Positions 360 through 60,113 of a stretch of 64,000 bases of DNA are shown here, one piece after another (the stretch's first letter is position 1; every line of letters starts with the position of its first letter). Made by a program: the position numbers and the translations under genes. The DNA lies in the NCBI RefSeq assembly GCF_003790525.1, contig NZ_CP033635.1, one strand, 5' to 3'. Below the pieces are notes generated by a model. The model saw only the letters and a program-made list of their open reading frames with translations. It was not told where the DNA came from and searched no databases. Origin of the DNA: Escherichia coli. GTDB lineage: Bacteria; Pseudomonadota; Gammaproteobacteria; Enterobacterales; Enterobacteriaceae.

Positions 360-2462
360 TTACTCAAATCGCCACGCAATATTCATGCCGACACCATAAT
401 TTCGCCCGGGCGCAGGTTCGTAATATCGACCGTTTGACTCATTGACAATGACAGAACCAACGTATCCTTTATCGAATAAATTATCGACACGACCAAATAA
501 ATCCACAGTCAAATTGTGGTAATTGTATTTATACCCGGTGAATAAGCCGACGAGAGTATAAGACGGCGCTTTGGCCGTATTTTCATCATCTGCCATAATA
601 TCGCCCATATATCGCGCTTCCGTGCCTGCATACCAGCCTTCTTCCGGTACATAACCTATCGATGCAAAGCCCATATTACGGGCGATCCCTGGCATCCGGT
701 TACCGTTACAATCCTGTTCATTGCACACATTGCTGCGATAGGTCGCATCAAGCCAGGTCCAGGACGCTTTTACGCGAAAATCTCCCGCGAAACGTTGATC
801 CCATGCCAGTTCAGCGCCTTGACGACGGGTCTTTCCGGCATTTTTATATGTGGTACGCCCACCGCTACTGCTATCGACAACAATTTCATCATCGGTGTCG
901 GTCTGGAACAATGCGAGACTCAGCAGCCCATCACCAATACGCGTTTTACTGCCGATCTCAATTGTATCGTTGGTAGATGGTTTTAAACCAAAGTTCATAC
1001 CGCTTTGCCCATCAGCGCGATAAGACAGTTCATTAATCGTCGGCGTTTCAAAACCACGCCCGGCTGCCAGATAGATATTCCAGGCATCGTTCATTGCATA
1101 TTTTAACGAACCGGCAGGTAGCCATTTGTGATAACTGGCATCACCGCTGTCATCGCCGTTACCCGGAGTAACGTAATGGTCGTTGGAATCAAACCATACG
1201 GAGCTGTAGCGCACGCCAGCATCCAGCGACAGTTTTTCGCTCAGCTGCCACTGTGTCTGTAAATAGGGATCGACATTCCACATCAGATTGCGTTCGTCGC
1301 GACGTAACTCACCTTTTTGCCCGTATTCCGGCACGCCGCTATTCAGGCGGAAGTTATTGTAGCCCTTGCGGTTTTCACTCATGTTTTCGTAGTTCAGGCC
1401 AGTAGTGAACGTGACCGGAACACCCAGCTCGCCATGGTGTGTCCAGCGGCTGTCTATCCCCTGATAATGGCGTTGCAGAGTAATCACGCCGCCCGCATGC
1501 GACGGATTAAGTTGAGGGGCCATCGGGATTGACTGGTACTGGGTCGTTTCTCGCTCTCCGGCATACATCATTACACTCATATCATCTTGCGCGCTCAGGC
1601 TACGTTCATAGCGCAACCCAGCCTGAGTTTGCTTGATGGTTTTTCGCGTGTCGTACTGTTCAGCGCGTGGCGCTTGTTGCGGATTCGCCTTCCATTCTGC
1701 TTCGGTTAGCCCACCTGGGTCATCTGCTTTGATATCCACACTATTGAAAATCAGGCTTAATTTGCTGGCTTCATCAATGCGAACGCCCAGTTTGGCATTG
1801 GCTAAATTTTTCTGTGCGCCACTATGGTCACGATAGCCGTGGGTCGTAAAACGCGTGGTTGAGACGGTGTAATCGACATCGCCAGGCTGTGTGCCGTCGC
1901 CCGTTGCGCCTGTTGCTTTCAGCCCATAGCGCCAGCTGCCAAAACTGCCGTAGTAACTACTGGCTTCAATGGTTGGTGGCTGTTGTCCGGTCTGGGTGAT
2001 GACATTCATTACACCGCCAGACGCGTTGCCATACAGAGCAGAGAAGGGGCCACGCAGCACTTCCACATTTTGCACACTGCTTAAATCGATGTTGGATGTT
2101 TGCCCTTGCCCGTCGGGCATGGTGGCGGGAATACCGTCCACATACAGGCGAATACCGCGAATTCCGTAAGTGGAGCGGGAGCCAAATCCGCGAATCGACA
2201 GCTGTAAATCTTGCGCATAGTTCTGCCGGTTTTGTACCTGCAAACCAGGCACGCCAGTCAGTGATTCAGACAAGTTAATGCGCGGTGTTGCCAGGCGCAT
2301 CTCCTCGCCATCCACCACGCTTACTGCTGCTGGCGTATCCAGTTCTGAAACCACCTGCGGCGCGGCACTGACAATCATGGTCTGTTCATCAGCGGCAAAA
2401 ACAACGGGGGAAAGGACAAGCAGTGCGGGCAAAACGGTCTGTCGGACGGAAAAAATCTTCAT
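360..2462 (-). CDS. yncD: TonB-dependent outer-membrane receptor YncD
   Basis: 700-aa ORF with signal peptide, plug and beta-barrel sequence, and C-terminal aromatic residue (…AWRFE); same length as K-12 YncD. Confidence 0.9.
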   Translation of the reverse strand: MKIFSVRQTVLPALLVLSPVVFAADEQTMIVSAAPQVVSELDTPAAVSVVDGEEMRLATPRINLSESLTGVPGLQVQNRQNYAQDLQLSIRGFGSRSTYGIRGIRLYVDGIPATMPDGQGQTSNIDLSSVQNVEVLRGPFSALYGNASGGVMNVITQTGQQPPTIEASSYYGSFGSWRYGLKATGATGDGTQPGDVDYTVSTTRFTTHGYRDHSGAQKNLANAKLGVRIDEASKLSLIFNSVDIKADDPGGLTEAEWKANPQQAPRAEQYDTRKTIKQTQAGLRYERSLSAQDDMSVMMYAGERETTQYQSIPMAPQLNPSHAGGVITLQRHYQGIDSRWTHHGELGVPVTFTTGLNYENMSENRKGYNNFRLNSGVPEYGQKGELRRDERNLMWNVDPYLQTQWQLSEKLSLDAGVRYSSVWFDSNDHYVTPGNGDDSGDASYHKWLPAGSLKYAMNDAWNIYLAAGRGFETPTINELSYRADGQSGMNFGLKPSTNDTIEIGSKTRIGDGLLSLALFQTDTDDEIVVDSSSGGRTTYKNAGKTRRQGAELAWDQRFAGDFRVKASWTWLDATYRSNVCNEQDCNGNRMPGIARNMGFASIGYVPEEGWYAGTEARYMGDIMADDENTAKAPSYTLVGLFTGYKYNYHNLTVDLFGRVDNLFDKGYVGSVIVNESNGRYYEPAPGRNYGVGMNIAWRFE

Positions 2463-2703
2463 GAAAAAAGCCAGGTTAAGAATGGGAAAACGCCGTCATG
2501 GTAATAAAATTGTAAATTTATGGAAAACGAAACGGCACGATACGTTAAGTAATTGAGAGAATTGTAGTCGTAACGGCAAGAAATGCTCCACATTTGAGAA
2601 AATAATGATTACCATTCCCATTTATAACAAGAGCGTAACGATGATTACGCTTAGCGAAGCATTGTGAAGCAGCAAAAATATCGGTTCATCAAAGGGAGTC
2701 GTC

Positions 2704-3765
2704 ATGCATTTACGTCATCTGTTTTCATCGCGCCTGCGTGGTTCATTACTGTTAGGTTCATTGCTTGTTGCTTCATCATTCAGTACGCAGGCCGCAGAAG
2801 AAATGCTGCGTAAAGCGGTAGGTAAAGGTGCCTACGAAATGGCTTATAGCCAGCAAGAAAACGCGCTGTGGCTCGCCACTTCGCAAAGCCGCAAACTGGA
2901 TAAAGGCGGCGTGGTTTATCGTCTTGATCCGGTTACTCTGGAAGTGACGCAGGCGATCCATAACGATCTCAAGCCGTTTGGTGCCACCATCAATAACACG
3001 ACTCAGACGTTGTGGTTTGGTAACACTGTAAACAGCGCGGTCACGGCGATAGATGCCAAAACGGGCGAAGTGAAAGGACGTCTGGTGCTTGATGAGCGTA
3101 AACGTACCGAAGAAGTGCGTCCGTTGCAGCCGCGTGAGCTGGTAGCTGATGATGCCACGAACACCGTTTACATCAGTGGTATTGGTAAAGAGAGCGTGAT
3201 TTGGGTCGTTGATGGCGAGAATATCAAACTGAAAACCGCCATCCAGAACACCGGTAAAATGAGTACCGGTTTAGCGCTGGATAGCAAAGGCAAACGTCTT
3301 TACACCACTAACGCTGACGGCGAATTGATTACCATCGACACCGCCGACAATAAAATCCTCAGCCGTAAAAAGCTGCTGGATGACGACAAAGAGCACTTCT
3401 TTATCAACATCAGCCTTGATACCACCAATCAGCGTGCATTTATCACCGATTCTAAAGCGGCAGAAGTGTTAGTGGTTGATACCCGTAATGGCAATATTCT
3501 TGCGAAGGTTGCGGCACCGGAATCACTGGCTGTGCTGTTTAACCCAGCGCGTAATGAAGCCTACGTGACGCATCGTCAGGCAGGTAAAGTCAGTGTGATT
3601 GACGCGAAAAGCTATAAAGTGGTGAAAACGTTCGATACGCCGACTCATCCGAACAGCCTGGCGCTGTCTGCAGATGGCAAAACGCTGTATGTCAGTGTGA
3701 AACAAAAATCCACTAAACAGCAGGAAGCTACCCAGCCGGACGATGTGATTCGTATTGCGCTGTAA
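2704..3765 (+). CDS. yncE: Secreted beta-propeller protein YncE
   Basis: 353-aa ORF with N-terminal signal peptide and repeated propeller blades; position and length match yncE. Confidence 0.9.
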   Translation: MHLRHLFSSRLRGSLLLGSLLVASSFSTQAAEEMLRKAVGKGAYEMAYSQQENALWLATSQSRKLDKGGVVYRLDPVTLEVTQAIHNDLKPFGATINNTTQTLWFGNTVNSAVTAIDAKTGEVKGRLVLDERKRTEEVRPLQPRELVADDATNTVYISGIGKESVIWVVDGENIKLKTAIQNTGKMSTGLALDSKGKRLYTTNADGELITIDTADNKILSRKKLLDDDKEHFFINISLDTTNQRAFITDSKAAEVLVVDTRNGNILAKVAAPESLAVLFNPARNEAYVTHRQAGKVSVIDAKSYKVVKTFDTPTHPNSLALSADGKTLYVSVKQKSTKQQEATQPDDVIRIAL

Positions 3766-3846
3766 TAGATATGGCGAGGGTGAAAACGGAGAGACTTGCC
3801 TGACTTTTATCACGCCGTATCCGGCACCTTCGTCAGTAATTTGAAT

Positions 3847-3874
3847 TTGCCCGGCACGTAGCCGGGCAATTTTG
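3847..3874 (+). terminator. Rho-independent terminator downstream of yncE
   Basis: GC stem ttgcccggc/gccgggcaa with 5-nt loop followed by ttttg. Confidence 0.55.
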
Positions 3875-3877
3875 CAA

Positions 3878-5377
3878 TTAACTCGCCGTTTCAGGCTTAA
3901 ACACAATTTCCTGTTGTTCTTCATCTTCCTCGACGACTGGCGCAGTGCTGTGAATTTCAGCAACGCGTTTGCGCACACCAAACCAGCCTATAACCAGCAG
4001 AATACCGATAATCGGTAGCGCCGCGATAGTATAAGTCCCGTTCGGGTAATCGAACGCCATCAGCACCAGAACACTCAGTAAAAACAGTAATGTCAGCCAG
4101 GAAGTGAAGGGCGCGCCAGGCAGTTTAAAACTGACATCCGCTGCTTTGCCTTCTTTAATCGCTTTACGCAGGCGCATCTGGCACACGATGATAAACGCCC
4201 ATGAAGCGATGATTCCCAGCGACGCGAAGTTCAACACAATCTCAAATACGCGCGACGGCACCAGATAGTTGAGGAATACGCCGACGACATACACAACCAG
4301 TGTCGCCAGAATCCCGGCATACGGCACATGCTGACGACTCATTTTCGCCATAAAACTCGGTGCGGAACCGCCCATCGCCATTGAGCGCAGAATGCGTCCG
4401 GTGCAGTACAGACCTGAATTCAGGCTGGAGAGGGCAGCGGTCAGCACCACAATGTTCATAATGCTGCCGATATATGGCACACCCAGTTTAGAGAAAAACG
4501 TCACGAACGGACTTTGCCCCGCCTGATACGCGCTCCACGGCAATAGCATAACCAGCAACACCACGGAGCCGACGTAAAACAGGCCAATACGCCAAATCAC
4601 ACTGTTAATCGCTTTAGGCACCATGGTCTGCGGATCTTTACATTCTCCGGCCGCTGTACCCACCATTTCAATAGAGGCAAAAGCAAACACTACGCCCTGA
4701 ATCAACACCAGCGCAGGCAGCAAACCGTGGGGGAAGAAGCCGCCATTATCGGTAATTAAATGAAAGCCAGTGGTGTTGCCATCCAGCGGCTGACCGCTAC
4801 CGAGGAACACTGTACCCACGACCAAAAAGGTCACGATGGCGAGCACTTTAATAAGCGCAAACCAGAACTCCATCTCCGCAAACCATTTCACACCAATCAT
4901 ATTCATGGTGCCAACGATGGTCAGCGCAGCGAGCGCAAAGACCCACTGCGGCACGCCGCCAAACGCACCCCAGTAATGCATATACAGAGCGACGGCGGTG
5001 ATATCGACAATCCCTGTCATCGCCCAGTTGATGAAGTACATCCAGCCTGCAACGTAAGCGGCTTTCTCTCCTAAAAACTCACGGGCATAAGAGACAAAAC
5101 TGCCACTGGAAGGGCGGTGTAGCACCAGCTCACCCAATGCACGCAGAATAAAAAATGAAAACAGGCCGCAGATTAAATAGACCAGTGCCAGTGCTGGCCC
5201 CGCCATTTGCAGTCGGGCTCCTGCACCTAAAAACAAGCCGGTGCCAATCGCGCCGCCAATGGCGATCATCTGAACCTGGCGATTGCCCATCGCTTTGTGA
5301 TACCCCTCTTCGTGGGCATTAAGCCAGCGGCGTTTCGCGGCGTGCTGATCTGAAGTGTCGGTGTCGTGTTTACTCAT
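3878..5377 (-). CDS. ansP: L-asparagine permease (APC family amino-acid transporter)
   Basis: Multi-TM APC permease ORF; start assigned to the internal ATG (MSKHDTD…) at 5375-5377 giving 499 aa; the ORF-track start at 5428 is probably an upstream extension. Confidence 0.88.
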   Translation of the reverse strand: MSKHDTDTSDQHAAKRRWLNAHEEGYHKAMGNRQVQMIAIGGAIGTGLFLGAGARLQMAGPALALVYLICGLFSFFILRALGELVLHRPSSGSFVSYAREFLGEKAAYVAGWMYFINWAMTGIVDITAVALYMHYWGAFGGVPQWVFALAALTIVGTMNMIGVKWFAEMEFWFALIKVLAIVTFLVVGTVFLGSGQPLDGNTTGFHLITDNGGFFPHGLLPALVLIQGVVFAFASIEMVGTAAGECKDPQTMVPKAINSVIWRIGLFYVGSVVLLVMLLPWSAYQAGQSPFVTFFSKLGVPYIGSIMNIVVLTAALSSLNSGLYCTGRILRSMAMGGSAPSFMAKMSRQHVPYAGILATLVVYVVGVFLNYLVPSRVFEIVLNFASLGIIASWAFIIVCQMRLRKAIKEGKAADVSFKLPGAPFTSWLTLLFLLSVLVLMAFDYPNGTYTIAALPIIGILLVIGWFGVRKRVAEIHSTAPVVEEDEEQQEIVFKPETAS

Positions 5378-5643
5378 TGCTCTCCCTGATTGCTTTAATG
5401 AAAAAGTCATATAAGTTGCCATGAACAATGTTTATTCATCCTGGCGATGATAGTTATCACCATTATTCTTTATGGGTATAAAACTATCGGCGCAGCATCC
5501 TACCCGTTATCGATAAACGATGCAAAACATCCCCTTACAATCCTGAAGGGGAATAATACAACTGACGAAAAAATGACAAATCCTTTTGCTGGTTAACCTG
5601 TGTACTGTCCTACACTTAATCTTTAAAAGATTGTGAGGGGCAT

Positions 5644-6261
5644 ATGATTAAGGTGTATGGCGTACCCGGCTGGGGCTCTACAATCAGTGAGCTGATGCTA
5701 ACACTGGCTGATATTCCTTATCAGTTCGTTGATGTCAGTGGTTTTGACCGCGAGGGAACTTCACGCGAGTTATTGAAAACCCTGAACCCGTTGTGTCAGA
5801 TTCCGACACTGGCGCTGGAAAATGACGAGATTATGACGGAGACAGCGGCGATTGCATTGATGGTTCTCGATCGTCGCCCGGACCTTGCGCCACCGCTTGG
5901 GCGCGTCGAACGTCAGCAGTTTCAACAGTTATTGGTCTGGCTGGTTGCTAATGTCTATCCAACATTCACTTTCGCCGATTACCCTGAGCGTTGGGCTCCT
6001 GACGCACCCGAACAGTTAAAGAATAATGTTATTGAATATCGTAAATCGCTTTATATCTGGCTGAATTCACAATTGACCGCTGAACCGTATGTGTTTGGAG
6101 AGCAACTAACGCTGGTGGACTGTTATCTCTGCACCATGCGCACATGGGGACCGGGACACGAATGGTTTCAGGATAATGCCCCGAACATCAATGCGATTGC
6201 TGATGCTGTATGTCAGATACCAAAGCTAAAAGGGATACTAAAGAGGAATGGAATCATTTAA
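5644..6261 (+). CDS. yncG: Glutathione S-transferase homologue YncG
   Basis: 205-aa ORF with GST-like N-terminal thioredoxin fold sequence; conserved neighbour of ansP. Confidence 0.85.
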   Translation: MIKVYGVPGWGSTISELMLTLADIPYQFVDVSGFDREGTSRELLKTLNPLCQIPTLALENDEIMTETAAIALMVLDRRPDLAPPLGRVERQQFQQLLVWLVANVYPTFTFADYPERWAPDAPEQLKNNVIEYRKSLYIWLNSQLTAEPYVFGEQLTLVDCYLCTMRTWGPGHEWFQDNAPNINAIADAVCQIPKLKGILKRNGII

Positions 6262-6845
6262 TTATTTTTCCCATCGATTTCGCCCACTTTCTTTCGCCCG
6301 GTATAACGCAGCGTCGGCATCTGAAATAATTTGTTCAGCCGTTTTTGCGGGAGCAGAACAGGTAATCCCCTGACTAACCGTAACGAATGCATTAACAGCA
6401 GATGCCTGATGCGGGATAGCTGCCAGTTTAAGTTCTTGCTTCACTCTGGCTGCTACCGTCTCTGCTTCCGGCAATGTTGCATTAAAAAGTATGATGACAA
6501 ACTCTTCGCCACCATAACGGACAACAACATCCTCCGACTGGCGAGTTGAACGCTGTAGAGCGTCGGCAACTTGTATTAGACAACGATCCCCAGCAGGATG
6601 CCCGTAAGTGTCGTTGTAACGTTTAAAAAAATCGACATCCAGCATAATAAGAGCAAATGACCCGCCGTTATCTATCGCGTCGTGTAAGATACTGTTCATT
6701 GCACGTCGGTTTGCTATCCCAGTTAAAGGATCACGATGTGCTAATGCATCAAGGCGATTAATTAACTGGTTGTTATAACTGTTTTGTACCCATGCTTCTT
6801 CAAACCAACGTAACAAAATGAGTCGCCCACCATATAGCGCCAGTG

Positions 6846-6853
6846 AAAAAATA
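6846..6853. repeat. IS1 target-site duplication, left copy (aaaaaata)
   Basis: Same 8-bp sequence directly flanks both IS1 ends. Confidence 0.6.
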
Positions 6854-6868
6854 GGTAATGACTCCAAC

Positions 6869-7372
6869 TTATTGATAGTGTTTTATGTTCAGATAATGCC
6901 CGATGACTTTGTCATGCAGCTCCACCGATTTTGAGAACGACAGCGACTTCCGTCCCAGCCGTGCCAGGTGCTGCCTCAGATTCAGGTTATGCCGCTCAAT
7001 TCGCTGCGTATATCGCTTGCTGATTACGTGCAGCTTTCCCTTCAGGCGGGATTCATACAGCGGCCAGCCATCCGTCATCCATATCACCACGTCAAAGGGT
7101 GACAGCAGGCTCATAAGACGCCCCAGCGTCGCCATCGTGCGTTCACCGAATACGTGCGCAACAACCGTCTTCCGGAGCCTGTCATACGCGTAAAACAGCC
7201 AGCGCTGGCGCGATTTAGCCCCGACATAGCCCCACTGTTCGTCCATTTCCGCACAGACGATGACGTCACTGCCCGGCTGTATGCGCGAGGTTACCGACTG
7301 CGGCCTGAGTTTTTTAAGTGACGTAAAATCGTGTTGAGGCCAACGCCCATAATGCGGGCTGTTGCCCGGCAT
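6869..7372 (-). CDS. insB: IS1 InsB (catalytic part; InsAB' is made by -1 frameshifting)
   Basis: 167-aa ORF matching IS1 InsB; overlaps insA in the -1 frame as in canonical IS1. Confidence 0.9.
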
Positions 7373-7566
7373 CCAACGCCATTCATGGCCATATCAATGA
7401 TTTTCTGGTGCGTACCGGGTTGAGAAGCGGTGTAAGTGAACTGCAGTTGCCATGTTTTACGGCAGTGAGAGCAGAGATAGCGCTGATGTCCGGCGGTGCT
7501 TTTGCCGTTACGCACCACCCCGTCAGTAGCTGAACAGGAGGGACAGCTGATAGAAACAGAAGCCAC
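7291..7566 (-). CDS. insA: IS1 InsA (transposition repressor / N-terminal part of the transposase)
   Basis: 91-aa [42 protein letters not shown]… is the IS1 InsA sequence. Confidence 0.92.
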
Positions 7567-7621
7567 TGGAGCACCTCAAAAACACCATCATATACTAAAT
7601 CAGTAAGTTGGCAGCATCACC

Positions 7622-7629
7622 AAAAAATA
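7622..7629. repeat. IS1 target-site duplication, right copy (aaaaaata)
   Basis: Same 8-bp sequence directly flanks both IS1 ends. Confidence 0.6.
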
Positions 7630-8142
7630 CACCATACAACAGCAAAATGAATATTGATCTGTTGATTAAGCATAAGACTCGCTATTGGAGTGGTGAACCA
7701 TAAGGGAATGACAAATGCGAGCAATGATGGGGTATGGAAATAAAGTGCGATAACGCCACTAAGCATTAATAATACACATAGTGGATAAGCAAACTGCAGC
7801 GTCCAGTACGCAATAAAGTGATAACTACACCATGACCATAGCAGGCTCAGGGCAACTAATAGCACCTGGATAGGTAATGTTTTTTGCCGAGGGATGAGTA
7901 GTAAACCACTGCAAATCAGCAGAATACCCGTTGCAGATATATCAATAGAATGTATAAGGCTTTTTTCATTTAACCAGGGTGGAGTAAGGTCATTAAACAG
8001 AACACGGCGCAGCAAAATTATCAATGCAAAACTGACATTGATAAAAGCAAACCATGGCAAACTAATCGTCATGCCGCGAATAACCATATCGCGGCGGGTT
8101 TTCCATGAGTGATGCGTTTTTCTTCGTTCAGCCATTTTTTAA

Positions 8143-8167
8143 CCAAAAAAGGGCAGGATACCTGCCC
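8143..8167 (-). terminator. Rho-independent terminator after the alkyl-sulfatase gene
   Basis: Stem gggcagg-ata-cctgccc followed on the minus strand by a T-run (plus-strand aaaaaa at 8145-8150). Confidence 0.5.
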
Positions 8168-8181
8168 GGTATGCAGTAAAT

Positions 8182-10158
8182 TTATGGTGTCACTATATTG
8201 AACCAAAATTCAAAATTATCCATATAACCTAACAGCTCGTTGAGTTTTTCCGCATTGCCAGTAATTTTGACATCTTCTTTGGCCGTGGCTTCTTTCAGCG
8301 TCTCTTCTTTCAGTACAATTTTGTTCAATACATCACGAGACAGAGTGATAGTGGCATCAGCATCCGAAGCCTCTACACCAGCGGTATGATTGAGAACACC
8401 ATTTTCAAGCTCCACTTTATAGGTGCCGCCATCTTCACCAAAATCGAAATTCAACACGGTTTTGGCATCTGCCGCTTTCTCACCATTAATATGGACGGCA
8501 AGATAATCAAAGAACATCTCCGGCGTCATCGCACGCACGGTGTCTGGGCTGGCAGTATTTGGTGTTGGTAATTTTTGTACGCCATTACGCAATTCCTGTG
8601 CGCCAGTGAGATAGAAATTACGCCACGGCCCAGATTCAGCCTGATAGCCTAACTGCTCAAGCGCATCAGCTTCCAGATTTCTCGCTGCCTGGTTGTTTGG
8701 ATCGGTAAACACCACCTTACTAACAACTTGGGCAACCCAGCGGAAATTACCCTGGTCATAATCCTGTTTGGCTTTCTGTAAAATGGCATCAGCACCGCCC
8801 ATATACTCGACGAATTTTTTTGCGCCTTCTTCTGGCGGCAGTTCATCAAGCGTCGCGGGGTTACCATCAAACCAGCCGAGATAAAGCACGTAAGTTGCTT
8901 TCACGTCATGACTTACCGAACCGTAATAGCCGCGATTCGCCCAGGTATTAGCCAGTGAAGAGGGCAGTTTAAAGTTTGCGGCAATTTCATCACGGGTCAT
9001 CCCTTGATTTGCCATACGCAGAGTTTGATCATTGATGTAACGATACAAATCACGCTGGCTTTTAAGCAGTTTGACCACGTTATCGTTGCCCCAGGTTGGC
9101 CAGTGATGTTGAGCGAGAATAATCTCGGCTTTATCTCCCCATAAATTGAGAGCTTCGTTAATATATTTTGACCACGGCAGCGGTTGGCGAATTTTAGCCC
9201 CACGCAGCGAATAGGTGTTATGAAGGGTGTGCGTGACATCTTCAGCGGTTTCGATCAGTTTCTTTTCTTCAATAAACCACAGCATTTCAGAAGGCGCTTC
9301 AGAGCCTGGCGCCATCAAGAAATCATAGGTCAACCCGTCAATAGTTTCTTTTTGTCCGGTTTTGGTGATGTAGTTAGTAGGAGCAATCAACGTGACCGTT
9401 CCTGCTGAAGTGGTTGTTCCCAGTCCCGCGCCAACCTGGCCTTTAACATCAGGTTTCAATAAGTTGCCATACATATAACTGGCTCGTCGGCTCATCACAT
9501 TGCCAGCCATAATATTTTCGGAAACGGCTTCCTCCAAAAATCCGGCTGGCGCGTAGATTTTAACTTTGCCTGATTTAACGTCAGCTTCATCAATTACGCC
9601 GCGAACACCACCGTAGTGATCGACATGACTGTGTGTGTAGATAACCGCTACTACCGGTTTTTTGTCGCGATTTTTGTAATAGAGATCCATACCCACTTTG
9701 GCTGTTTCTGCTGAAACAAGGGGATCAACGATGGTAATACCCTCTTTGCCTTCAATGATGGTCATATTTGATAGATCGAGATTGCGAATCTGATAGACAC
9801 CTTCAGTTACTTCGAATAACCCGCTGATATTTATCAGTTGCGCCTGACGCCATAAACTTGGATTCACCGTATCAGGGGCTTTATCACCTTCTTTAATAAA
9901 AGCGTATTGTTGTGGATCCCAGATAACATTTCCTTTTTCGCCCTTAATCACGTCTTGAGGGATAGGGGCAACAAAACCTTTATGGGCATCAGTAAAGTCA
10001 GTGTTATCAGAAAACGGCAACTGGTTGTAGAGTAAATTGTTTGCTTGTTGCGTGGCTGCGGTGGCGTCTTTAGGGGCTTCCGCCGCGAGGAGTGGCAAAG
10101 AACTGGTGGTGAATAATCCCGTTATTAGCAGACTTTTAACAATATGATTAAGCTGCAT
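8182..10158 (-). CDS. Secreted metallo-beta-lactamase-fold alkyl/aryl sulfatase (SdsA1/YjcS-like)
   Basis: 658-aa ORF with Sec signal peptide, MBL metal-binding motif (…YTHSHVDHYGG…), then dimerisation and SCP2-like C-terminal regions typical of type III alkylsulfatases. Confidence 0.8.
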   Translation of the reverse strand: MQLNHIVKSLLITGLFTTSSLPLLAAEAPKDATAATQQANNLLYNQLPFSDNTDFTDAHKGFVAPIPQDVIKGEKGNVIWDPQQYAFIKEGDKAPDTVNPSLWRQAQLINISGLFEVTEGVYQIRNLDLSNMTIIEGKEGITIVDPLVSAETAKVGMDLYYKNRDKKPVVAVIYTHSHVDHYGGVRGVIDEADVKSGKVKIYAPAGFLEEAVSENIMAGNVMSRRASYMYGNLLKPDVKGQVGAGLGTTTSAGTVTLIAPTNYITKTGQKETIDGLTYDFLMAPGSEAPSEMLWFIEEKKLIETAEDVTHTLHNTYSLRGAKIRQPLPWSKYINEALNLWGDKAEIILAQHHWPTWGNDNVVKLLKSQRDLYRYINDQTLRMANQGMTRDEIAANFKLPSSLANTWANRGYYGSVSHDVKATYVLYLGWFDGNPATLDELPPEEGAKKFVEYMGGADAILQKAKQDYDQGNFRWVAQVVSKVVFTDPNNQAARNLEADALEQLGYQAESGPWRNFYLTGAQELRNGVQKLPTPNTASPDTVRAMTPEMFFDYLAVHINGEKAADAKTVLNFDFGEDGGTYKVELENGVLNHTAGVEASDADATITLSRDVLNKIVLKEETLKEATAKEDVKITGNAEKLNELLGYMDNFEFWFNIVTP

Positions 10159-10462
10159 CTTAAGCGTCTCCAGAATGGACTTTTATTGGGGGTAATTACG
10201 GATGAAAATTTTTGTGAGGGCAAGAATAACTATAATGGGCGTTAATAAATTGGCAAGCCGGGAACTTGATGTTTTCTTAATGGCATGTTGGCGAAGAATA
10301 TATTCTGCAAGTTGACGTTTTTGTTGGCGCTTTATTTAAAAGGGTGTAGTACAAATCTGTACAAATTCAAGTAGGCATTATTGCCGTAAAAAAGCATCAC
10401 CGGACACATAACATTCACAACGTGTGTTAATTTTACTGACATCTTTCAAAAGGAGCACAATC

Positions 10463-10690
10463 ATGCCGCACATAGACATTAAATGTTTTCCACGTGAACT
10501 GGACGAACAACAAAAAGCAGCACTTGCTGCAGATATTACCGACGTTATTATTCGCCATCTGAACAGTAAAGACAGTTCGATAAGCATTGCTCTACAGCAG
10601 ATTCAACCAGAATCATGGCAAGCTATCTGGGACACCGAAATTGCGCCCCAAATGGAGACGCTGATAAAGAAACCTGGTTACAGCATGTAA
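10463..10690 (+). CDS. pptA: 4-oxalocrotonate-tautomerase-family tautomerase PptA
   Basis: Start at the ATG of [10 protein letters not shown] (catalytic Pro1 after Met removal), preceded by aaggag RBS at 10450-10455. Confidence 0.85.
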
Positions 10691-10693
10691 TGC

Positions 10694-11263
10694 TTAACCT
10701 GCCGTAACACGCTTGCCGCTGGTAACAAACGTGCCAGCGCCTAAATGATGCAACGTATTGAGCTTATCATCATCAAACTGCCAGCGGCCTTCGACAAATA
10801 CCCGTACGTCTGCCGCTGCAGATACCACTTCGCCAAATAGCGAATCGTATTTTTCTTGCGCGGAAGTTGCAGGTAGCAGGCGACACTCCATCCACGCCAG
10901 ACATTTTTCCTCGACCAGCGGCAAACCAAGCACCGGGCCTTTCACAACCGGAATACCATAGCAATTAAACTTATCTTCATCACGCCCCGACACACTTCCC
11001 ACCGCCCACGTCCAGTTAGTTGCTGCAACGCCCGGGATAACGATGCCAAATTTACCGTTACGTTCAATCAACTCCCTGGTCCATGTCGATTTATCTACCA
11101 CAATCGCGACGCGTGGCGGTTCAAACTCCACCGGCATTGACCAGGCTGCAGCCATAATGTTACGCCGCTGGGATTGCTCATCGAAACTGGTGATCATGAC
11201 AGTTGGGCCATGATTTAACAGACGGCTGGCATGGTGTAATTCGACGGGGATGAATCGGCTCAC
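10694..11263 (-). CDS. yddH: Flavin-reductase-like protein YddH
   Basis: 189-aa ORF with flavin reductase-like domain sequence; convergent with pptA at 3-bp spacing. Confidence 0.85.
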   Translation of the reverse strand: MSRFIPVELHHASRLLNHGPTVMITSFDEQSQRRNIMAAAWSMPVEFEPPRVAIVVDKSTWTRELIERNGKFGIVIPGVAATNWTWAVGSVSGRDEDKFNCYGIPVVKGPVLGLPLVEEKCLAWMECRLLPATSAQEKYDSLFGEVVSAAADVRVFVEGRWQFDDDKLNTLHHLGAGTFVTSGKRVTAG

Positions 11264-11437
11264 GGTATCGCCTCGCTAAGAAGGGTGTTTTAAAAGCGTA
11301 GCTCGTAACGCTATAAGTAACGAAATTAACGGGATTGGCGATTTGCGAACGTGATGCATGTCCGCGATCGCACAAAATAGCCGGTGCAGCGTCTATTCCA
11401 GGTTATAAGTTGAGAAAACCACTAAGGGAAACGCCTG

Positions 11438-12283
11438 ATGACGCCCATTCTGAATCATTATTTTGCCCGTATTAACTGGTCGGGAGCTGCTGCGGCCAAT
11501 ATTGATACGCTGCGTGCATTGCACCTGAAACACAATTGCACCATTCCATTTGAAAACCTCGACGTTTTGCTGCCAAGGGAAATACAGCTTGATGATCAAT
11601 CGCTGGAAGAGAAACTGGTGACAGCCCGTCGTGGCGGTTACTGTTTTGAGCAGAATGGCGTGTTTGAGCGTGTGTTACGCGAGCTGGGGTTTAACGTTCG
11701 CAGCTTGTTAGGGCGCGTAGTGTTATCAAATCCGCCAGCATTACCGCCGCGCACCCATCGTTTGTTGTTGGTGGAACTGGAAGGGGAAAAATGGATTGCT
11801 GATGTCGGTTTCGGTGGACAGACGCTAACCGCGCCGATTCGGTTAGTTCCCGAGCTCGTGCAGACCACGCCACACGGAGAGTATCGGTTGTTGCAGGAGG
11901 GTGATGATTGGGTGTTGCAGTTTAATCATCATCAGCACTGGCAGTCGATGTACCGTTTTGATCTCTGCGAGCAGCAACAAAGCGATTATGTGATGGGCAA
12001 TTTCTGGTCGGCGCATTGGCCGCAGTCGCATTTTCGCCATCATTTGCTGATGTGCCGCCATTTACCGGACGGCGGCAAGCTGACACTGACCAATTTTCAT
12101 TTTACCCATTATGAAAATGGGCACGCAGTTGAGCAGCGAAATCTACCAGATGTGGCGTCGTTATATGCCGTGATGCAGGAACAGTTTGGTCTGGGCGTAG
12201 ATGATGCGAAACATGGCTTTACTGTGGATGAGTTAGCGCTGGTGATGGCGGCGTTTGATACGCACCCGGAGGCGGGAAAATAA
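11438..12283 (+). CDS. nhoA: Arylamine N-acetyltransferase (N-hydroxyarylamine O-acetyltransferase)
   Basis: 281-aa ORF with the NAT-family catalytic cysteine context (…RRGGYCFEQN…). Confidence 0.9.
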   Translation: MTPILNHYFARINWSGAAAANIDTLRALHLKHNCTIPFENLDVLLPREIQLDDQSLEEKLVTARRGGYCFEQNGVFERVLRELGFNVRSLLGRVVLSNPPALPPRTHRLLLVELEGEKWIADVGFGGQTLTAPIRLVPELVQTTPHGEYRLLQEGDDWVLQFNHHQHWQSMYRFDLCEQQQSDYVMGNFWSAHWPQSHFRHHLLMCRHLPDGGKLTLTNFHFTHYENGHAVEQRNLPDVASLYAVMQEQFGLGVDDAKHGFTVDELALVMAAFDTHPEAGK

Positions 12284-12293
12284 TTTATGTCAG

Positions 12294-12375
12294 GTTGCCG
12301 GATGTGGCGTAAATGCCTAATCCGGCATACATTAGTCCGGTTGTAGGCCTGATAAGCGAAGCGCATCAGGCAACG
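12294..12375. repeat. REP/BIME-type extragenic palindromes between nhoA and yddE
   Basis: Two palindromic units (gccggat…atccggc and gtaggcctgataagcgaagcgcatcaggca) with the characteristic REP signature. Confidence 0.5.
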
Positions 12376-12378
12376 GTT

Positions 12379-13272
12379 TCAGAGTTTAATTGCCCATTCG
12401 GCATGAAACAAAATCACCGCCGTGCCAGAAATGGTGACTTTCTCCGGTTGGTTATCACGAATTGTCACCGTCACTTCAATCACGCCGTCACGCCCTAATG
12501 CGCGCCCCTGATGGCCTTTAACACGCAACACGTTGCCATCGTGTGGCAATACGTTGTGATGTACTAACTATGCACCCATCGGGCCATTGGCATTGCCAGT
12601 CACCGGATCTTCCACAATACCAATCGCAGGCGAGAACATGCGACCATCGGTTTCGTTTTTGCCTGGGCGGATCTGGAACGGGAAGAAACCATTGCAGCCA
12701 ATCTGTTTGCTGATTGTGGTCAGCGCAGCAAGGTCAGGCGAAAGGGCGTCGATATCCACTTCCGGCTTCAGTGGAATCATCACTTTTGAGTGTCCTGTGG
12801 TAGCCACCTGGATTGGCAAGCCTTGCAAAATATCGTCTTCAGTGAGATGAAGCGCGTTGATAATCGCTGCACGTGTTTCACCTTCCAGCGGTGGTTCAAA
12901 GCCCGGCGTACCTTGCTCCAGCGAAATACGATAATCATCATTTTGCTTTTCGATAGTCACACGATGTTTTCCTGCCAGCGACGTTTGCCAGACGGTGCAA
13001 TTTCCTAAACCTAACACCTTTGCACGTACATAGTGCGCAGCTACTGTCGCGTGACCACAAATCGGAACTTCAACCGTTGGCGTAAAGTAGCGGATGCGCA
13101 CATCGCTGTCGTCGCTGTGCAGCAGAAAAGCAGTTTCCGAATGACCTAACTCGCGGGCGATAAGCTGCATTTGCGCTTCGCTAAGATTATCGGCGGGGAA
13201 AACAACACCGGCAGAATTGCCGCGAAACGGTTGAGAGGTAAAAGCATCGACGTGGTAAACCTGCGGTTTCAT
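12379..13272 (-). pseudogene. yddE: PhzF-family isomerase YddE, interrupted by an in-frame amber codon
   Basis: The ORF stops at TAG (plus-strand cta, 12568-12570) after 234 codons; the same frame then runs a further 62 codons to TGA at 12379-12381, giving the 297-aa full-length YddE. Confidence 0.7.
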
Positions 13273-13351
13273 TAATGTTCTCCTGTGGCTGGAGAACTAT
13301 CATAGCCTGCAAGTGGCCGGAGAGCGAAGAGCTATCCGGCCCGCGAGAGAA

Positions 13352-14032
13352 TTAACGCCGCGAACGCACAATCTGATACCGACGAGTAAAGTACTCAAAC
13401 GGCGCGCTCCAGACATGCACCAGTCGGGTGAACGGGAAGAGCAGAAAGATGGTCATTCCAAGCACCAGATGAACGCGGAATATAAAGGCGACACCATCAA
13501 GATGCGTAGATGCACCGCCCTGGAAAGTGACAATGCTTTGCGCCCAGCCCACCAGCTTCATCATTTCACTGCCGTCCGGATGTTGTGCTGAAAAAGGAAT
13601 GGTGGTTAACCCAAGAATGCACTGAATTAACAAAATGGCGAGGATCAGGATATCCGCACCAGAAGACGTCGCCCTGATACGCGGATTTGTTAAACGACGC
13701 ACCAGTAGCCCCGCACCGCCAATCAGCGTCAATACCCCGCATATTCCGCCGAGGATCATCGCCATCTGCTGTTTTACCGCCACCGGCAGAAACCACGCGT
13801 ACATCCAGTGCGGTGTTAACATGCCGAACAGGTGCCCGAAGAAAATCCCCAAAATGCCAATATGGAACAGATTCGACCATATCACCATCCCGCGTTTATC
13901 GAGCATTTGACTTGAGGAGGCGCGCCAGGTGTACTGCCCGTAGTCATAGCGCAGCCAGCTGCCAAGGAAAAACACCGTCGCACAAATGTACGGGTAGATA
14001 TCGTAAAAAAAGACGTTCAGATACTGAATCAT
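13352..14032 (-). CDS. narV: Nitrate reductase Z gamma subunit (heme b membrane subunit)
   Basis: 226-aa multi-TM ORF; 4-bp overlap with narW. Confidence 0.9.
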
Positions 14033-14724
14033 TTCCCACCTCCCGCACTGATGTCGACATATTGCGGCGCGACATCCTGGCTAAAGCGTCGCTGATATTG
14101 ATTAAGCGGCGAGCTGTCACACGCCGTGGCGTTATCTTCAATAAACTTCACCTGTTCCTCTTCCCACACCGCATCCAGTGCCTGGCGGGTGTCATCGCGC
14201 TCCTCACTGTTCACCTGTTTTGTGACACTGTCACTTGAAAGTGTACTTCCTGCCAGTTGCAACAGGGTGTCAAATAACGCGTACCACGGTGCCTCGCGTT
14301 GTTTTAAGCGTCCGCCAAGCAGGGCGAGGATCGGCGCAACGTTGAGCAAGCCTTCTTTCGCCTGATCGTCCGGCAGTACGCTTAAGTACTCCAGATACAG
14401 CGGTAGATAATCGGGCAGTTCTCGACAATCCAACTGCAGGCCGACCTTTTCATACTCCGCCAGCAGGTCCACCATTGCCTGGCCGCGATCGCGGGACTCG
14501 GCATGAACATGTTCGAACAGCAGCAGCGATGTGGTACGTCCACGGTCAAACACTTCGCACCATTCGGCCTGTTTATCCAGCAGCGGCGCGTTAAGCAGGT
14601 TGCGGGTAAAATCCGTAAGCATCGGTGCGTCGCGGCGGATCAACGCCAGCGCGTCCTCCTTACATTCCCACAACAGCTCGTCCGGATACTCCATCAACAG
14701 GCCGATCACTTTGAGGATCTGCAT
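14029..14724 (-). CDS. narW: Nitrate reductase Z assembly chaperone (NarJ-type)
   Basis: 231-aa ORF between narY and narV, translationally coupled to both. Confidence 0.9.
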
Positions 14725-16268
14725 TATTCGCCCTCCGCTTTGTCGCGCACTTCGGTGATGTTGATGGCATCGATACGGCTACTGTTGAACAGGTTGAATT
14801 TGCTGTCCGAGCCGTGGCAACCGTCGCCAAAGGTAAAACCGCAGCCGTTGCGTTCTGCGAAGGCATCGCCCGCCATTTCCCGATGGCTTGTCGGGATGAC
14901 AAAACGGTCTTCATAGTTGGCAATGGCGAGGTAACGATACATCTCTTCGACCTGGGCGACGCTCAGACCTACTTCGTCGATGGCACGAGTATCAGTAACG
15001 CCTTCCACGGTTTGTGAACGCATATAGTGGCGCATCGCCATCATCCGTTTCAGCGCCCGCAGTACCGGACCGGTATCACCGGCACTCAACATATTGGCGA
15101 GATATTGCACCGGAATACGCAGGCTTTCGATGGCGGGCAGCACGCCTTCGCTTTTCGGCAAACCTCCCGCATCAGCGTAGGACTGAATCGGTGACAGCGG
15201 CGGAACGTACCAGACCATCGGCAGGGTGCGGTATTCAGGGTGCAGCGGTAGCGCCAGTTTCCAGTCCATTGCCATTTTGTAGACTGGCGAACGCTGGGCA
15301 GCGTCAATCACGTTTTGTGGAATACCTTGTTTCAGGGCTTCCTCGATCACCGAGGGATCGTGCGGATCGAGGAACACTTCGCACTGGCGTTCATAGAGGT
15401 CAACTTCGCGCTCGGTGCTCGCCGCTTCCTCGATGCGGTCGGCGTCGTAAAGCAGCACGCCCAGATATCGGATGCGACCCACGCAGGTTTCTGAGCACAC
15501 GGTGGGTTGGCCTGACTCAATTCGTGGGTAACAGAAGATGCATTTTTCTGACTTGCCGCTTTTCCAGTTGAAGTAGATTTTTTTGTACGGACAACCGCTA
15601 ATGCACAAACGCCAGCCACGGCATTTATCCTGATCAATCAGCACAATGCCGTCTTCTTCACGTTTGTAGATAGCACCGCTTGGGCAGGTCGCCACGCAGC
15701 TGGGATTGAGGCAGTGTTCGCACAGGCGCGGCAGGTACATCATGAACGTGTTTTCAAACTGCCCGTACATCTCCTTTTGCATGGCCTCGAAGTTGCGGTC
15801 GCGGGCGCGTTTTTCAAATTCGCCGCCCAACAATTCTTCCCAGTTTGGCCCCCAGATCACTTTGTCCATCCGTTTGCCGTCAATCAGTGAACGCGGGCGC
15901 GCAGTAGGAATATGTTTACCTTCTGGCGCGCTATGCAAATGTTCGTAGTCGAAGGTGAAAGGTTCGTAGTAATCATCAATCTGCGGCACCACCGGGTTGG
16001 CGAAGATTTTGGTAATCACGCCCATCTTGCTGCCCAGACGCGGGCGGATCTTGCCATTCACATCACGCACCCAGCCGCCTTGCCACTCTTCCTGATCTTC
16101 CCAGTTTTTCGGATAACCAATGCCCGGTTTGGTTTCGACGTTGTTAAACCATGCGTACTCCATGCCTTCGCGTCCGGTCCAGACGTTTTTACAGGTCACC
16201 GAACAGGTATGGCAGCCGATACATTTATCGAGGTTAAGCACCATGCCGACTTGCGAACGTATTTTCAT
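14724..16268 (-). CDS. narY: Nitrate reductase Z beta subunit (Fe-S)
   Basis: 514-aa ORF with several ferredoxin-type Cys clusters (CIGCHTCSVTC, CEHCLNPSCVATCP…). Confidence 0.92.
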   Translation of the reverse strand: MKIRSQVGMVLNLDKCIGCHTCSVTCKNVWTGREGMEYAWFNNVETKPGIGYPKNWEDQEEWQGGWVRDVNGKIRPRLGSKMGVITKIFANPVVPQIDDYYEPFTFDYEHLHSAPEGKHIPTARPRSLIDGKRMDKVIWGPNWEELLGGEFEKRARDRNFEAMQKEMYGQFENTFMMYLPRLCEHCLNPSCVATCPSGAIYKREEDGIVLIDQDKCRGWRLCISGCPYKKIYFNWKSGKSEKCIFCYPRIESGQPTVCSETCVGRIRYLGVLLYDADRIEEAASTEREVDLYERQCEVFLDPHDPSVIEEALKQGIPQNVIDAAQRSPVYKMAMDWKLALPLHPEYRTLPMVWYVPPLSPIQSYADAGGLPKSEGVLPAIESLRIPVQYLANMLSAGDTGPVLRALKRMMAMRHYMRSQTVEGVTDTRAIDEVGLSVAQVEEMYRYLAIANYEDRFVIPTSHREMAGDAFAERNGCGFTFGDGCHGSDSKFNLFNSSRIDAINITEVRDKAEGE

Positions 16269-35884: not shown

Positions 35885-36316
35885 ATGACAATCCATAAGA
35901 AAGGTCAGGCACACTGGGAAGGCGATATCAAACGCGGGAAGGGAACTGTATCCACCGAGAGCGGCGTGCTGAACCAACAGCCGTATGGATTTAACACGCG
36001 TTTTGAAGGCGAAAAAGGAACCAACCCTGAAGAACTGATTGGCGCAGCGCATGCCGCATGTTTCTCAATGGCGCTTTCATTAATGCTGGGGGAAGCGGGA
36101 TTCACGCCAACATCGATTGATACCACCGCCGATGTGTCGCTGGATAAAGTGGATGCCGGTTTTGCGATTACTAAAATCGCACTGAAAAGCGAAGTTGCGG
36201 TGCCGGGTATTGATGCCTCTACTTTTGACGGCATTATCCAGAAAGCAAAAGCAGGATGCCCGGTTTCTCAGGTACTGAAAGCTGAAATTACGCTTGATTA
36301 CCAGTTGAAATCATAA
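35885..36316 (+). CDS. osmC: Osmotically inducible peroxiredoxin OsmC
   Basis: 143-aa OsmC/Ohr-family ORF with the two conserved cysteines (…AACFSMAL…, …AGCPVSQ…). Confidence 0.92.
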   Translation: MTIHKKGQAHWEGDIKRGKGTVSTESGVLNQQPYGFNTRFEGEKGTNPEELIGAAHAACFSMALSLMLGEAGFTPTSIDTTADVSLDKVDAGFAITKIALKSEVAVPGIDASTFDGIIQKAKAGCPVSQVLKAEITLDYQLKS

Positions 36317-42336: not shown

Positions 42337-42593
42337 AAACGGTTCCTGTATAAGACAAAAATTGCTGCGCTTTCCGCTTATGCAGATCTCATGCCATGCC
42401 GGGATAAGCGCCAGAATGCTGGCTTAAAGTTATATTTTTTAACTTTTGATCAACATTTGTGCAGCGTAGTGCAGTTTTGGTGCAAGAGGGGAAGTTAAGG
42501 AAGGAATCTCCCGGAATCGTAGCTGAAATCACAGTATTTAAGTGACAGTGTCACGTTAAAAGAAAACCCGCGAGTGCGGGCGAGAGGAAAATG

Positions 42594-44993: not shown

Positions 44994-45017
44994 AATTACC
45001 TCTGCATCCTGACGCAT

Positions 45018-58614: not shown

Positions 58615-58904
58615 TAGCGAAAATTTATTGTGCCATCCAATGATTATCTATGGCAATGATATACTGATGAAATTTATTTAAGTATCATTTAACAATATGA
58701 AATATAAAGAAATATTTTATTTTCAGTGGTTATGGTTATGCTATTGATAATCAAGGGTATTGCTAATGCCCTGACGCATACCTCGTAAGCCAGGATTTTC
58801 GCAAAGGAAGATGATGAAGACGAAACACCCGACAGGAATTTATGTCGGGTGCCTTGTTAAGGTCATAAGAAGGAGGCTAAGAATGGAGCTAAGGGGGAGC
58901 GTTA

Positions 58905-60062: not shown

Positions 60063-60113
60063 CGCTATCTCGCTCAATAAGGCGGCGGAAAAATCCGCCG
60101 CATGAAGGTTTAG

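Follow-up and report, generated by a model that had tools for sequence, protein, structure and literature searches.

An accessory alkyl sulfatase gene and an IS1-interrupted MASE5-GGDEF cyclase gene between yncG and pptA of Escherichia coli

The interval between yncG and pptA in this Escherichia coli genome is a two-gene accessory module in a simple, Rhs-free configuration like that of E. coli SMS-3-5. Its content is very probably best explained as an alkyl sulfatase gene accompanied by a MASE5-GGDEF diguanylate cyclase gene that survives only as an IS1-generated null allele. The locus is of an already known kind and mostly ordinary. All positions refer to the window, a 64,000-nucleotide stretch of contig NZ_CP033635.1 (assembly GCF_003790525.1) presented as one strand (Table 1).

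Homology to both K-12 and ECONIH1 ends on the left at 6259 and resumes on the pptA side at 10374 (K-12) or 10089 (ECONIH1). In K-12 the same interval holds yncH, rhsE', ydcD, yncI' and ydcC, an H-repeat gene, in agreement with a preliminary description of this DNA that had assigned yncH and an Rhs/H-repeat remnant to this position in K-12. The yncG gene is 100% identical to that of SMS-3-5, and its TAA stop codon abuts the stop codon of the cyclase gene with zero spacer.

Table 1. Positions of features in and around the yncG-pptA interval
Feature	Position	Strand	Description
yncG	5644-6261	+	ORF; glutathione S-transferase family; left boundary of variable interval
Cyclase, C-terminal fragment	6262-6853	-	Native residues ~170-365; GGDEF domain with GGEEF; severed from start codon
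Target-site duplication, left copy	6846-6853		AAAAAATA, 8 bp
IS1	6854-7621	-	Complete, IS1A-like, 768 bp; splits cyclase at about codon 170
IS1 terminal inverted repeats	6854-6876 and 7599-7621		23 bp, imperfect
insB'	6869-7372	-	NCBIfam transpos_IS1
insA	7291-7566	-	NCBIfam transpos_IS1
A6C frameshift motif of IS1	around 7310-7316
Target-site duplication, right copy	7622-7629		AAAAAATA, 8 bp
Cyclase, N-terminal fragment	7622-8135	-	ORF 7617-8135; 171 native MASE5 residues, then Trp and stop inside IS1
Intrinsic-terminator-like hairpin and T-tract	8141-8167	-	GGGCAGG-TAT-CCTGCCC then TTTTTTGGTT
Type III (MBL-fold) alkyl sulfatase	8182-10158	-	ORF and Pfam; 658 aa, intact
Sigma-70-like promoter, best predicted match upstream of sulfatase	10229-10256	-	TTGCCA-16-TATAGT, 10/12, bare consensus match
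pptA	10463-10690	+	Tautomerase; NCBIfam PRK01271 equivalog, 158.8 bits; right boundary

IS1 insertion in the cyclase gene

The element that splits the cyclase gene is the only IS1 copy in the window and is 99.0-99.6% identical to annotated IS1A copies. Every hallmark of an IS1 insertion that we looked for was found: full length, terminal inverted repeats, insA and insB', a target-site duplication, and an empty site in a relative. The case resembles known inactivations by IS1 (IS1A) in these structural features, in its A6C motif and in its A/T-rich target, but the duplication is 8 bp long, whereas 9 bp is more usual for IS1. Excising the element together with one copy of the repeat yields a 365-codon cyclase ORF, while excising 9 bp does not restore the ORF. 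The empty site is provided by SMS-3-5, which has an intact cyclase gene and a single copy of AAAAAATA; the two BLAST blocks that align the genomes overlap by 8 bp. In strain M21170, an independent IS1 lies at the 5' end of the sulfatase gene, with a 9-bp overlap.

The flanks of the element match SMS-3-5 at 100% over 4,448 nt and at 99.987% over 7,537 nt, and the remaining window is 99.994% identical. Because the flanks agree this closely with an empty-site genome, and because the junction was found in none of the other complete E. coli genomes (0/5,426), the insertion is, judged from these comparisons, very recent.

When reconstructed, the cyclase has a multi-pass hydrophobic N-terminus (segments covering residues 24-183) that coincides with a Pfam MASE5 domain (PF17178, 7.4e-44, residues 25-206), followed by a GGDEF domain (Pfam, 1.7e-48) whose GGEEF active site is intact at residues 283-287. 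The canonical RxxD inhibitory site, a mark solely of the feedback-inhibited subclass of cyclases, is absent: the sequence is RQSEDVVVRY-GGEEF, and the position where RxxD would fall, five residues before GGEEF, reads QSED. We placed the start at the ATG at 8135, a choice backed by N-terminal conservation across genera; the RefSeq start, which gives a protein of 349 aa, probably lies 16 codons too far downstream. The uninterrupted protein, WP_000236738.1, occurs in RefSeq on at least 1,000 contigs, and the C-terminal fragment in the window is identical to the 3' part of its SMS-3-5 gene. Its domains are those of Enterobacterales MASE5-GGDEF cyclases annotated as 'membrane-associated sensor domain-containing protein / GGDEF domain-containing protein', but here the gene is split.

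Two other membrane-anchored GGDEF proteins of E. coli were considered and rejected as identities. DgcX of EAEC/O104:H4 is also strain-variable, but it lies at attB beside lambdoid prophages and has an eight-helix N-terminal domain of ~270 aa in common with YcdT and YeaI (PMC4287979), whereas the cyclase described here lies at yncG-pptA and has a MASE5 N-terminus of ~200 aa. Close paralogy to DgcF/YneF of K-12 was set aside on the basis of 27% identity, in the GGDEF domain alone, and of the absence of Pfam MASE5 from DgcF.

An intact cyclase would make c-di-GMP in response to some membrane signal received through its multi-pass MASE5 domain. IS1 has entered the last predicted transmembrane segment of that domain, which is physically split in the window; no uninterrupted frame joins the sensor and catalytic domains there. 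Since the catalytic domain is parted from both its start codon and its membrane sensor, this is almost certainly a null allele. The preliminary description had correctly traced GGDEF coding sequence downstream of the sulfatase gene, on the same strand and ending at 6262, but it missed the IS1 that divides the gene.

One observation counts against a null allele. A 201-codon ORF (6262-6867) opens at a TTG inside the end of IS1 and encodes one hydrophobic segment and a complete GGDEF domain with GGEEF, from which read-through out of IS1 may yield a residual truncated cyclase. Driven by such read-through or by a hybrid promoter, a sensor-less GGDEF protein would lead to deregulated c-di-GMP synthesis; the cyclase and IS1 share an orientation, and hybrid promoters are known to arise at the ends of IS1. 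However, the TTG start has no evident ribosome-binding site, IS1 classically exerts polar effects on the genes downstream of it, and the dimerization that GGDEF domains require normally comes from an N-terminal module. The confinement of this allele to a single genome also gives no sign of selection for it. We consider deregulated synthesis from this ORF highly improbable, and retain loss of function as the reading of the allele.

The alkyl sulfatase and its predicted transcription

The sulfatase is 100% identical to SMS-3-5 WP_001176575.1 and combines Lactamase_B, Alkyl_sulf_dimr (3.6e-62) and Alkyl_sulf_C (7.3e-44) domains with a match to SCP2 (3.7e-06). Its best solved relatives are 7TL5 (~79% identity) and SdsAP of Pseudomonas sp. 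S9 (PDB 4NUR, ~69%), both compared over the full length and without gaps; both have the same three-domain architecture, zinc ligands and Tyr/Gly pair. These score 1036-1183 bits, versus 706 bits for E. coli YjcS (4PDX), which together with Pisa1 (2YHE) and SdsA1 (2CFU) is a more distant relative. The sulfatase gene is accessory and distinct from its YjcS paralog.

In SdsAP, zinc is bound by H192/H194/D196/H197/E303/E322/H367, and specificity for primary alkyl sulfates resides in Y246/G263 (PMC5426288). Alignment with SdsAP places all seven ligands at H176/H178/D180/H181/E287/E306/H351 (HxHxDH plus Glu/Glu/His) and both specificity residues at Y230/G247, so that the refuting case named in the preliminary description, a catalytically dead homologue without metal ligands, does not apply. 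The N-terminus, MQLNHIVKSLLITGLFTTSSLPLLA followed by AEAP, has a hydrophobic core, and its end coincides with the start of the mature SdsAP construct; it is apparently a cleaved Sec-type signal peptide of ~25 aa, predicted from hydrophobicity and alignment only, that would direct export to the periplasm. The three domains, seven zinc ligands and predicted signal peptide fit the earlier designation of a secreted, SdsA1-like MBL-fold sulfatase. The protein is probably active as an enzyme: a Sec-exported, periplasmic, binuclear-zinc sulfatase of the SdsAP/SdsA1 type that would most likely convert primary (SDS-like) alkyl sulfates to alcohol and sulfate. No SdsB-like regulator was seen near the gene.

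The sulfatase gene probably has a promoter of its own within the 304 bp beside pptA, a region where the total of promoter-like sites is not above shuffle expectation, and its transcripts would end at the intrinsic terminator. The hairpin proper (8151-8167) has a 7-bp stem with six GC pairs and a 3-nt loop, and is followed by TTTTTTGG. Spacers of 15 nt separate it from the sulfatase stop codon on one side and from the cyclase ATG on the other. The centroid fold has an energy of -13.5 kcal/mol, and the folding energy of the terminator region is not significantly lower than that of shuffled sequences (z = -1.11). A GC-rich hairpin and T-tract occupy the same position in every tandem paired locus examined in other genera, lending weight to the hairpin terminator proposed at the outset between the two genes. 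Because 15 nt between hairpin and ATG leave no room for a separate promoter in Escherichia, cyclase transcription may depend on read-through from the sulfatase gene.

Distribution of the pair in E. coli

Of 5,426 complete E. coli genomes, 439 carry a full-length sulfatase gene and 436 a full-length cyclase gene; about 8% have the pair, which K-12-like genomes lack. The interval is strain-variable, as had been proposed, and its content is not universal in the species. The accompanying idea that sulfatase and cyclase stand in place of Rhs holds for the 86 genomes with the Rhs-free layout, but about 350 genomes carry Rhs, an ISAs1 remnant (ISAs1'), cyclase and sulfatase together. The yncH-rhsE-ydcD-yncI-ydcC arrangement of K-12 occupies the same interval, but is no simple alternative to the pair. 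In a further 88 genomes that lack the pair, the first 70 bp of the sulfatase gene remain beside an ISAs1 copy, a pattern that points to ISAs1-associated deletion.

Recurrent pairing across Enterobacterales

In Enterobacterales, sulfatase and cyclase genes are immediate neighbors in no fewer than five unrelated contexts and in three relative orientations: at pptA/yncG in Escherichia; between tynA and feaB in the Enterobacter/Lelliottia/Leclercia/Pseudenterobacter clade; between purE and yahO in Atlantibacter; in reversed order in Pantoea rodasii; and head-to-head in Salmonella enterica subsp. indica. Adjacency is kept even where the paired cyclases have diverged to ~50% identity.

This recurrence favors a coupling in which both genes function and MASE5 could, for example, detect in the inner membrane either an alkyl sulfate or the fatty alcohol that the sulfatase sets free, and raise c-di-GMP. 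The lack of promoter room upstream of the Escherichia cyclase, with the read-through it suggests, is in keeping with such a link. There is also a precedent: in P. aeruginosa, SDS triggers c-di-GMP-dependent aggregation through SiaA/SiaD (PMC4768041). SiaABCD likewise turns detergent exposure into aggregation, but SiaD is a soluble cyclase under a phosphatase/kinase partner-switch, whereas the cyclase described here is a MASE5 membrane protein, and the precedent implies no genetic link to a sulfatase. The similarity to SiaD is only of the generic GGDEF kind (155 bits against a 290-bit cut-off).

Weighing against coupling, the cyclase is absent from 66 of 77 sulfatase loci in other species, and in Hafnia paralvei and Pantoea agglomerans the cyclase occurs with no sulfatase partner. 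Terminator-like hairpins part the genes in all tandem paired loci examined, neither a regulator nor a transporter accompanies the two genes, and MASE5 has no known ligand. In this window coupling would be inoperable, the cyclase being split by IS1. The surfactant/c-di-GMP connection advanced in the preliminary description is accordingly broken in this genome, while recurrent adjacency, non-obligatory on both sides, gives modest comparative backing to a functional link elsewhere. Overall we regard coupling as unlikely. Less likely still is the fuller proposition that sulfatase and MASE5-GGDEF cyclase form a conserved mobile Enterobacterales module in which MASE5 senses alkyl sulfates or fatty alcohol and thereby governs c-di-GMP and biofilm.

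The alternative is that unrelated genes have been inherited or transferred together as neighbors into recombination-prone sites, an account to which we give an even chance. The hairpins imply separate transcription units, the association is obligatory for neither gene, Citrobacter carries the sulfatase alone and one gene away (yddH-sulfatase-pptA), and Rhs, ISAs1 and IS1 are all active at the Escherichia site, a hot spot of rearrangement. Passive linkage predicts less readily that adjacency should survive the changes of order and orientation seen in P. rodasii and S. enterica subsp. indica, as well as four or five differing insertion contexts. Some GGDEF gene also lies within 6 kb of the sulfatase at 18 of the 77 loci, which by a rough estimate is above chance for ~20 GGDEF genes per ~5-Mb genome, the loci being phylogenetically non-independent.

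For this genome, the annotation is corrected: the cyclase is an IS1 pseudogene rather than a working signaling gene. More broadly, the yncG-pptA interval shows an older accessory module eroded by Rhs, ISAs1 and IS1 activity in E. coli. One lead reaches further: genes for an SDS-type sulfatase and a MASE5 cyclase recur as neighbors in several genera and contexts, which yields a testable hypothesis for the MASE5 signal, and SMS-3-5 and the IS1 allele would provide a near-isogenic natural control. If true, the module reading would give MASE5 its first ligand and make the IS1 allele a natural knockout of the circuit.

IS1 in the cyclase gene

The preliminary description of the yncG-pptA interval listed an alkyl sulfatase gene followed by one ordinary diguanylate cyclase gene. 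This observation holds only in part, since it overlooked an insertion sequence. Our ORF listing over window positions 3000-14000 returned no single cyclase gene; two minus-strand ORFs are split by 768 bp, identified as IS1 by reading the DNA and by a repeat search. Both small ORFs in this segment match the NCBIfam IS1 transposase model, the element matches annotated IS1A copies at 99.0-99.6% identity, and its ends are 23-bp imperfect terminal inverted repeats (18/23 positions matching). The direct repeat AAAAAATA lies on either side, and deletion of IS1 together with one 8-bp copy regains a 365-codon ORF. A 9-bp target duplication was ruled out because only the 8-bp removal restores the frame. 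The insertion point falls near codon 170, within the final hydrophobic stretch of MASE5, and no second IS1 copy was found elsewhere in the window.

Features of the interval, with remoter GGDEF genes from comparison loci of other genomes
Feature	Sequence	Coordinates	Strand	Remark
yncE	window	2704-3765	+	
yncG	window	5644-6261	+	
GGDEF-containing cyclase ORF	window	6262-6867	-	201 aa
Direct repeat	window	6846-6853 and 7622-7629		8 bp
IS1	window	6854-7621		768 bp
Two small ORFs between the cyclase ORFs	window	6869-7372 and 7291-7566		
Hydrophobic cyclase ORF	window	7617-8135	-	172 aa
Hairpin and following tract	window	8167-8141	-	
Alkyl sulfatase ORF	window	8182-10158	-	658 aa
pptA	window	10463-10690	+	
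nhoA	window		+	
ansP, yddH, yddE, narV	window		-	
Remoter GGDEF gene	L036 (Serratia proteamaculans)	8202-8954		partly covers MASE5 region
Remoter GGDEF gene	L073 (Enterobacter sp. CC120223-11)	4987-5745		partly covers MASE5 region
Remoter GGDEF genes	L042, L044, L054 (Citrobacter spp.)	~3480-4010		

A megablast of the whole interval was swamped by IS1 copies (82,009 places), and its parts were searched one by one. In this interval the near-identical E. coli SMS-3-5 carries, in order, yncG, a GGDEF gene without interruption (WP_000236738.1), an alkyl/aryl-sulfatase (WP_001176575.1) that is 100% identical to ours, and pptA. Window positions 2406-6853 and 7622-15158 are 100% and 99.987% identical to SMS-3-5; the two alignment blocks share just the 8 bp of the repeat, which shows SMS-3-5 to carry the empty site. 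Identity over the other 48.8 kb is 99.994%, and none of the 5,426 complete E. coli genomes searched covers a 120-nt probe of the left IS1 junction. Near-identical flanks around an empty site, together with a junction absent from this set, indicate that IS1 entered an SMS-3-5-like genome recently and in this lineage only.

Relative to RefSeq SMS-3-5 the window has three substitutions and one indel, and it thus stems from another isolate or assembly of that lineage. In minus-strand yddE (PhzF-family, 297 aa as annotated in SMS-3-5), T at 12569, C in SMS-3-5, turns TGG into TAG (12568-12570) and cuts the gene to a 234-aa ORF (12568-13272). The plus-strand osmC is intact (143 aa, 35885-36316); RefSeq SMS-3-5 is one C short (window 35955), and its osmC is annotated as frameshifted. 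The other substitutions lie at 27214 (A for T, fdnG region) and 57578 (G for T, yddA region). Separately, strain M21170 has an independent IS1 (L003 7109-7876, corresponding to window 10145-10153) at sulfatase codons 2-5, which cuts the gene from its upstream region and shows a 9-bp overlap, as would fit a duplication of that length. Across strains, IS1 has thus struck the sulfatase as well as the cyclase.

Predicted properties of the sulfatase and the cyclase

The sulfatase carries the Pfam domains Lactamase_B, Alkyl_sulf_dimr and Alkyl_sulf_C/SCP2. Among solved structures it is most similar to 7TL5 (1183 bits, ~79% identity), then to the SDS hydrolase SdsAP (4NUR; 1036 bits, ~69%), followed by E. 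coli YjcS (4PDX, 706 bits), Pisa1 and SdsA1. SdsAP binds zinc through H192, H194, D196, H197, E303, E322 and H367, and its hydrolysis of SDS requires Y246 and G263 (PMC5426288). In an ungapped alignment with SdsAP all nine positions are kept (H176, H178, D180, H181, E287, E306, H351, Y230 and G247), which argues against the catalytically dead homologue, with metal ligands missing, that the preliminary description had allowed for. Residues 1-25 have a hydrophobic core and end at LLA|AEAP, the point at which the mature SdsAP construct begins. A text search found no literature specific to the E. coli yncG-pptA alkyl sulfatase.

The reconstructed cyclase comprises MASE5 (residues 25-206, 7e-44) and GGDEF (207-362, 2e-48) domains (Pfam), with GGEEF at residues 283-287 and QSED at the canonical RxxD I-site position. 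RefSeq gives the intact protein 349 aa, from a start equivalent to 8087; the ATG at 8135 gives 365 aa. Because tblastn alignments with orthologues from other genera begin at residue 1 or 10, and the N-terminal peptide encoded by the 16 upstream codons is conserved, the ATG at 8135 appears to be the better start. DgcX was ruled out as an identity for the cyclase: it lies at another locus, attB beside prophages, and has a different N-terminal domain, of ~270 aa and eight helices (PMC4287979). Close paralogy with K-12 DgcF was also rejected (27% identity, confined to the GGDEF domain; no MASE5 in DgcF by Pfam). Public sources name the protein only as 'GGDEF domain-containing' or 'membrane-associated sensor domain-containing protein'. 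DgcY, a name reportedly used by Povolotsky & Hengge 2016, is a tentative candidate for this protein; text searches of the literature for DgcY and MASE5 returned nothing relevant.

Between the genes, the hairpin GGGCAGG-TAT-CCTGCCC is followed by TTTTTTGG; a 15-nt gap separates the start of the hairpin from the sulfatase stop, and another of 15 nt separates its end from the cyclase ATG. All tandem sulfatase-cyclase loci examined in other genera have a different GC-rich hairpin and T-tract at the same position. The terminator proposed from the sequence is upheld by this hairpin and T-tract pattern and by its positional conservation, on which the call is based; the folding z-score was not significant over the 56-nt stretch. 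There would be no room in Escherichia for a separate promoter between hairpin and ATG, so cyclase transcription would need to begin ahead of the hairpin.

Distribution and history in E. coli

The content of the interval is strain-variable, as had been proposed: of the 5,426 complete E. coli genomes, 439 have a full-length sulfatase, a further 88 keep only its first ~70 bp, and 436 carry the cyclase. K-12 carries yncH, rhsE', ydcD, yncI' and ydcC, in agreement with the yncH and Rhs/H-repeat remnant of the preliminary description, and homology returns at window 10374; ECONIH1 has yncH, vgrG and ISAs1 copies, with homology returning at 10089, within the sulfatase. In 86 genomes, SMS-3-5 and CE10 among them, yncG joins the cyclase directly. 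In the remaining ~350 cyclase-bearing genomes homology ends 8 nt past the cyclase stop, beyond which lie a truncated ISAs1 and an Rhs element (M21170, E26). In Escherichia whittamii, too, the pair occupies this interval. The simplest reading is that an earlier yncG-cyclase-sulfatase-pptA layout would have taken in an Rhs/ISAs1 insertion, and that ISAs1-associated deletions would afterwards have removed the pair from most lineages.

The convergent yncG and cyclase genes abut in the window, with the yncG TAA and the cyclase stop (TTA on the plus strand) occupying 6259-6264 with zero spacer. Homology to K-12 and ECONIH1 stops exactly at 6259. Over its final 80 nt, yncG shares only ~83% identity with most E. 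coli yncG alleles, a divergence suggestive of an old recombination joint.

Claims about the sulfatase and c-di-GMP content of the region are also touched by two gene pairs at window ~42500-46300 and ~58000-61900 (by correspondence with comparison locus L083), identified from the SMS-3-5 annotation: dosC-dosP, a c-di-GMP pair, and ydeN-ydeM, a type I sulfatase and its anaerobic maturase. Both are unrelated to the sulfatase-cyclase pair.

The sulfatase-cyclase neighbourhood across Enterobacterales

A sulfatase scan with one genome per species, limited to the best 80 loci, returned 77 sulfatase loci. Among the matches listed, 10 loci (Escherichia, Atlantibacter, Lelliottia, Enterobacter and Pseudenterobacter) have a full-length MASE5-GGDEF orthologue immediately downstream on the same strand, and Pantoea rodasii has the cyclase upstream. 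Outside Escherichia, cyclase identity is 45-52% and sulfatase identity 83-91%. The pair lies between tynA and feaB-feaR in the Enterobacter clade and between purE and yahO in Atlantibacter; the P. rodasii flanks resemble neither. Searches begun from the cyclase added tynA-sulfatase-cyclase-feaB in Leclercia and E. hormaechei, and a head-to-head arrangement in a fifth context in Salmonella enterica subsp. indica. In Hafnia paralvei and Pantoea agglomerans the cyclase occurs by itself, and most of the 77 sulfatase loci lack it; one example is Citrobacter, whose sulfatase sits between yddH and pptA. The association is therefore recurrent, not obligatory. No third co-travelling regulator or transporter gene was found in the loci examined.

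A DUF1471 (YahO / YhcN / BhsA family) periplasmic stress protein of ~90 aa adjoins the pair only in Atlantibacter (L007 9287-9562) and P. rodasii (L043 8236-8505), whose flanks are otherwise unrelated. In additional genera, some sulfatase orthologues have a remoter GGDEF gene, 31-41% identical to the cyclase, alongside or no more than ~2 kb away. In a metagenome contig (L089; cyclase 63% identical) the order is narH-narJ-narI-nhoA-yddH-cyclase up to the contig end, with no pptA, yddE or sulfatase between yddH and cyclase; its gene order marks it as a further variant of the same neighbourhood, in a relative.

The preliminary description had speculated that the sulfatase is coupled to c-di-GMP signalling, for which SiaA/D of P. 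aeruginosa offers an SDS-triggered precedent (PMC4768041). For intact alleles, recurrent adjacency lends modest comparative support to a functional link, tempered by an association that is not obligatory, and the earlier interpretation is partly supported. The locus itself amounts to members of known families that are already annotated, plus an ordinary recent IS1 knockout; its only lead of wider value is the conserved neighbourhood of sulfatase and MASE5 cyclase.
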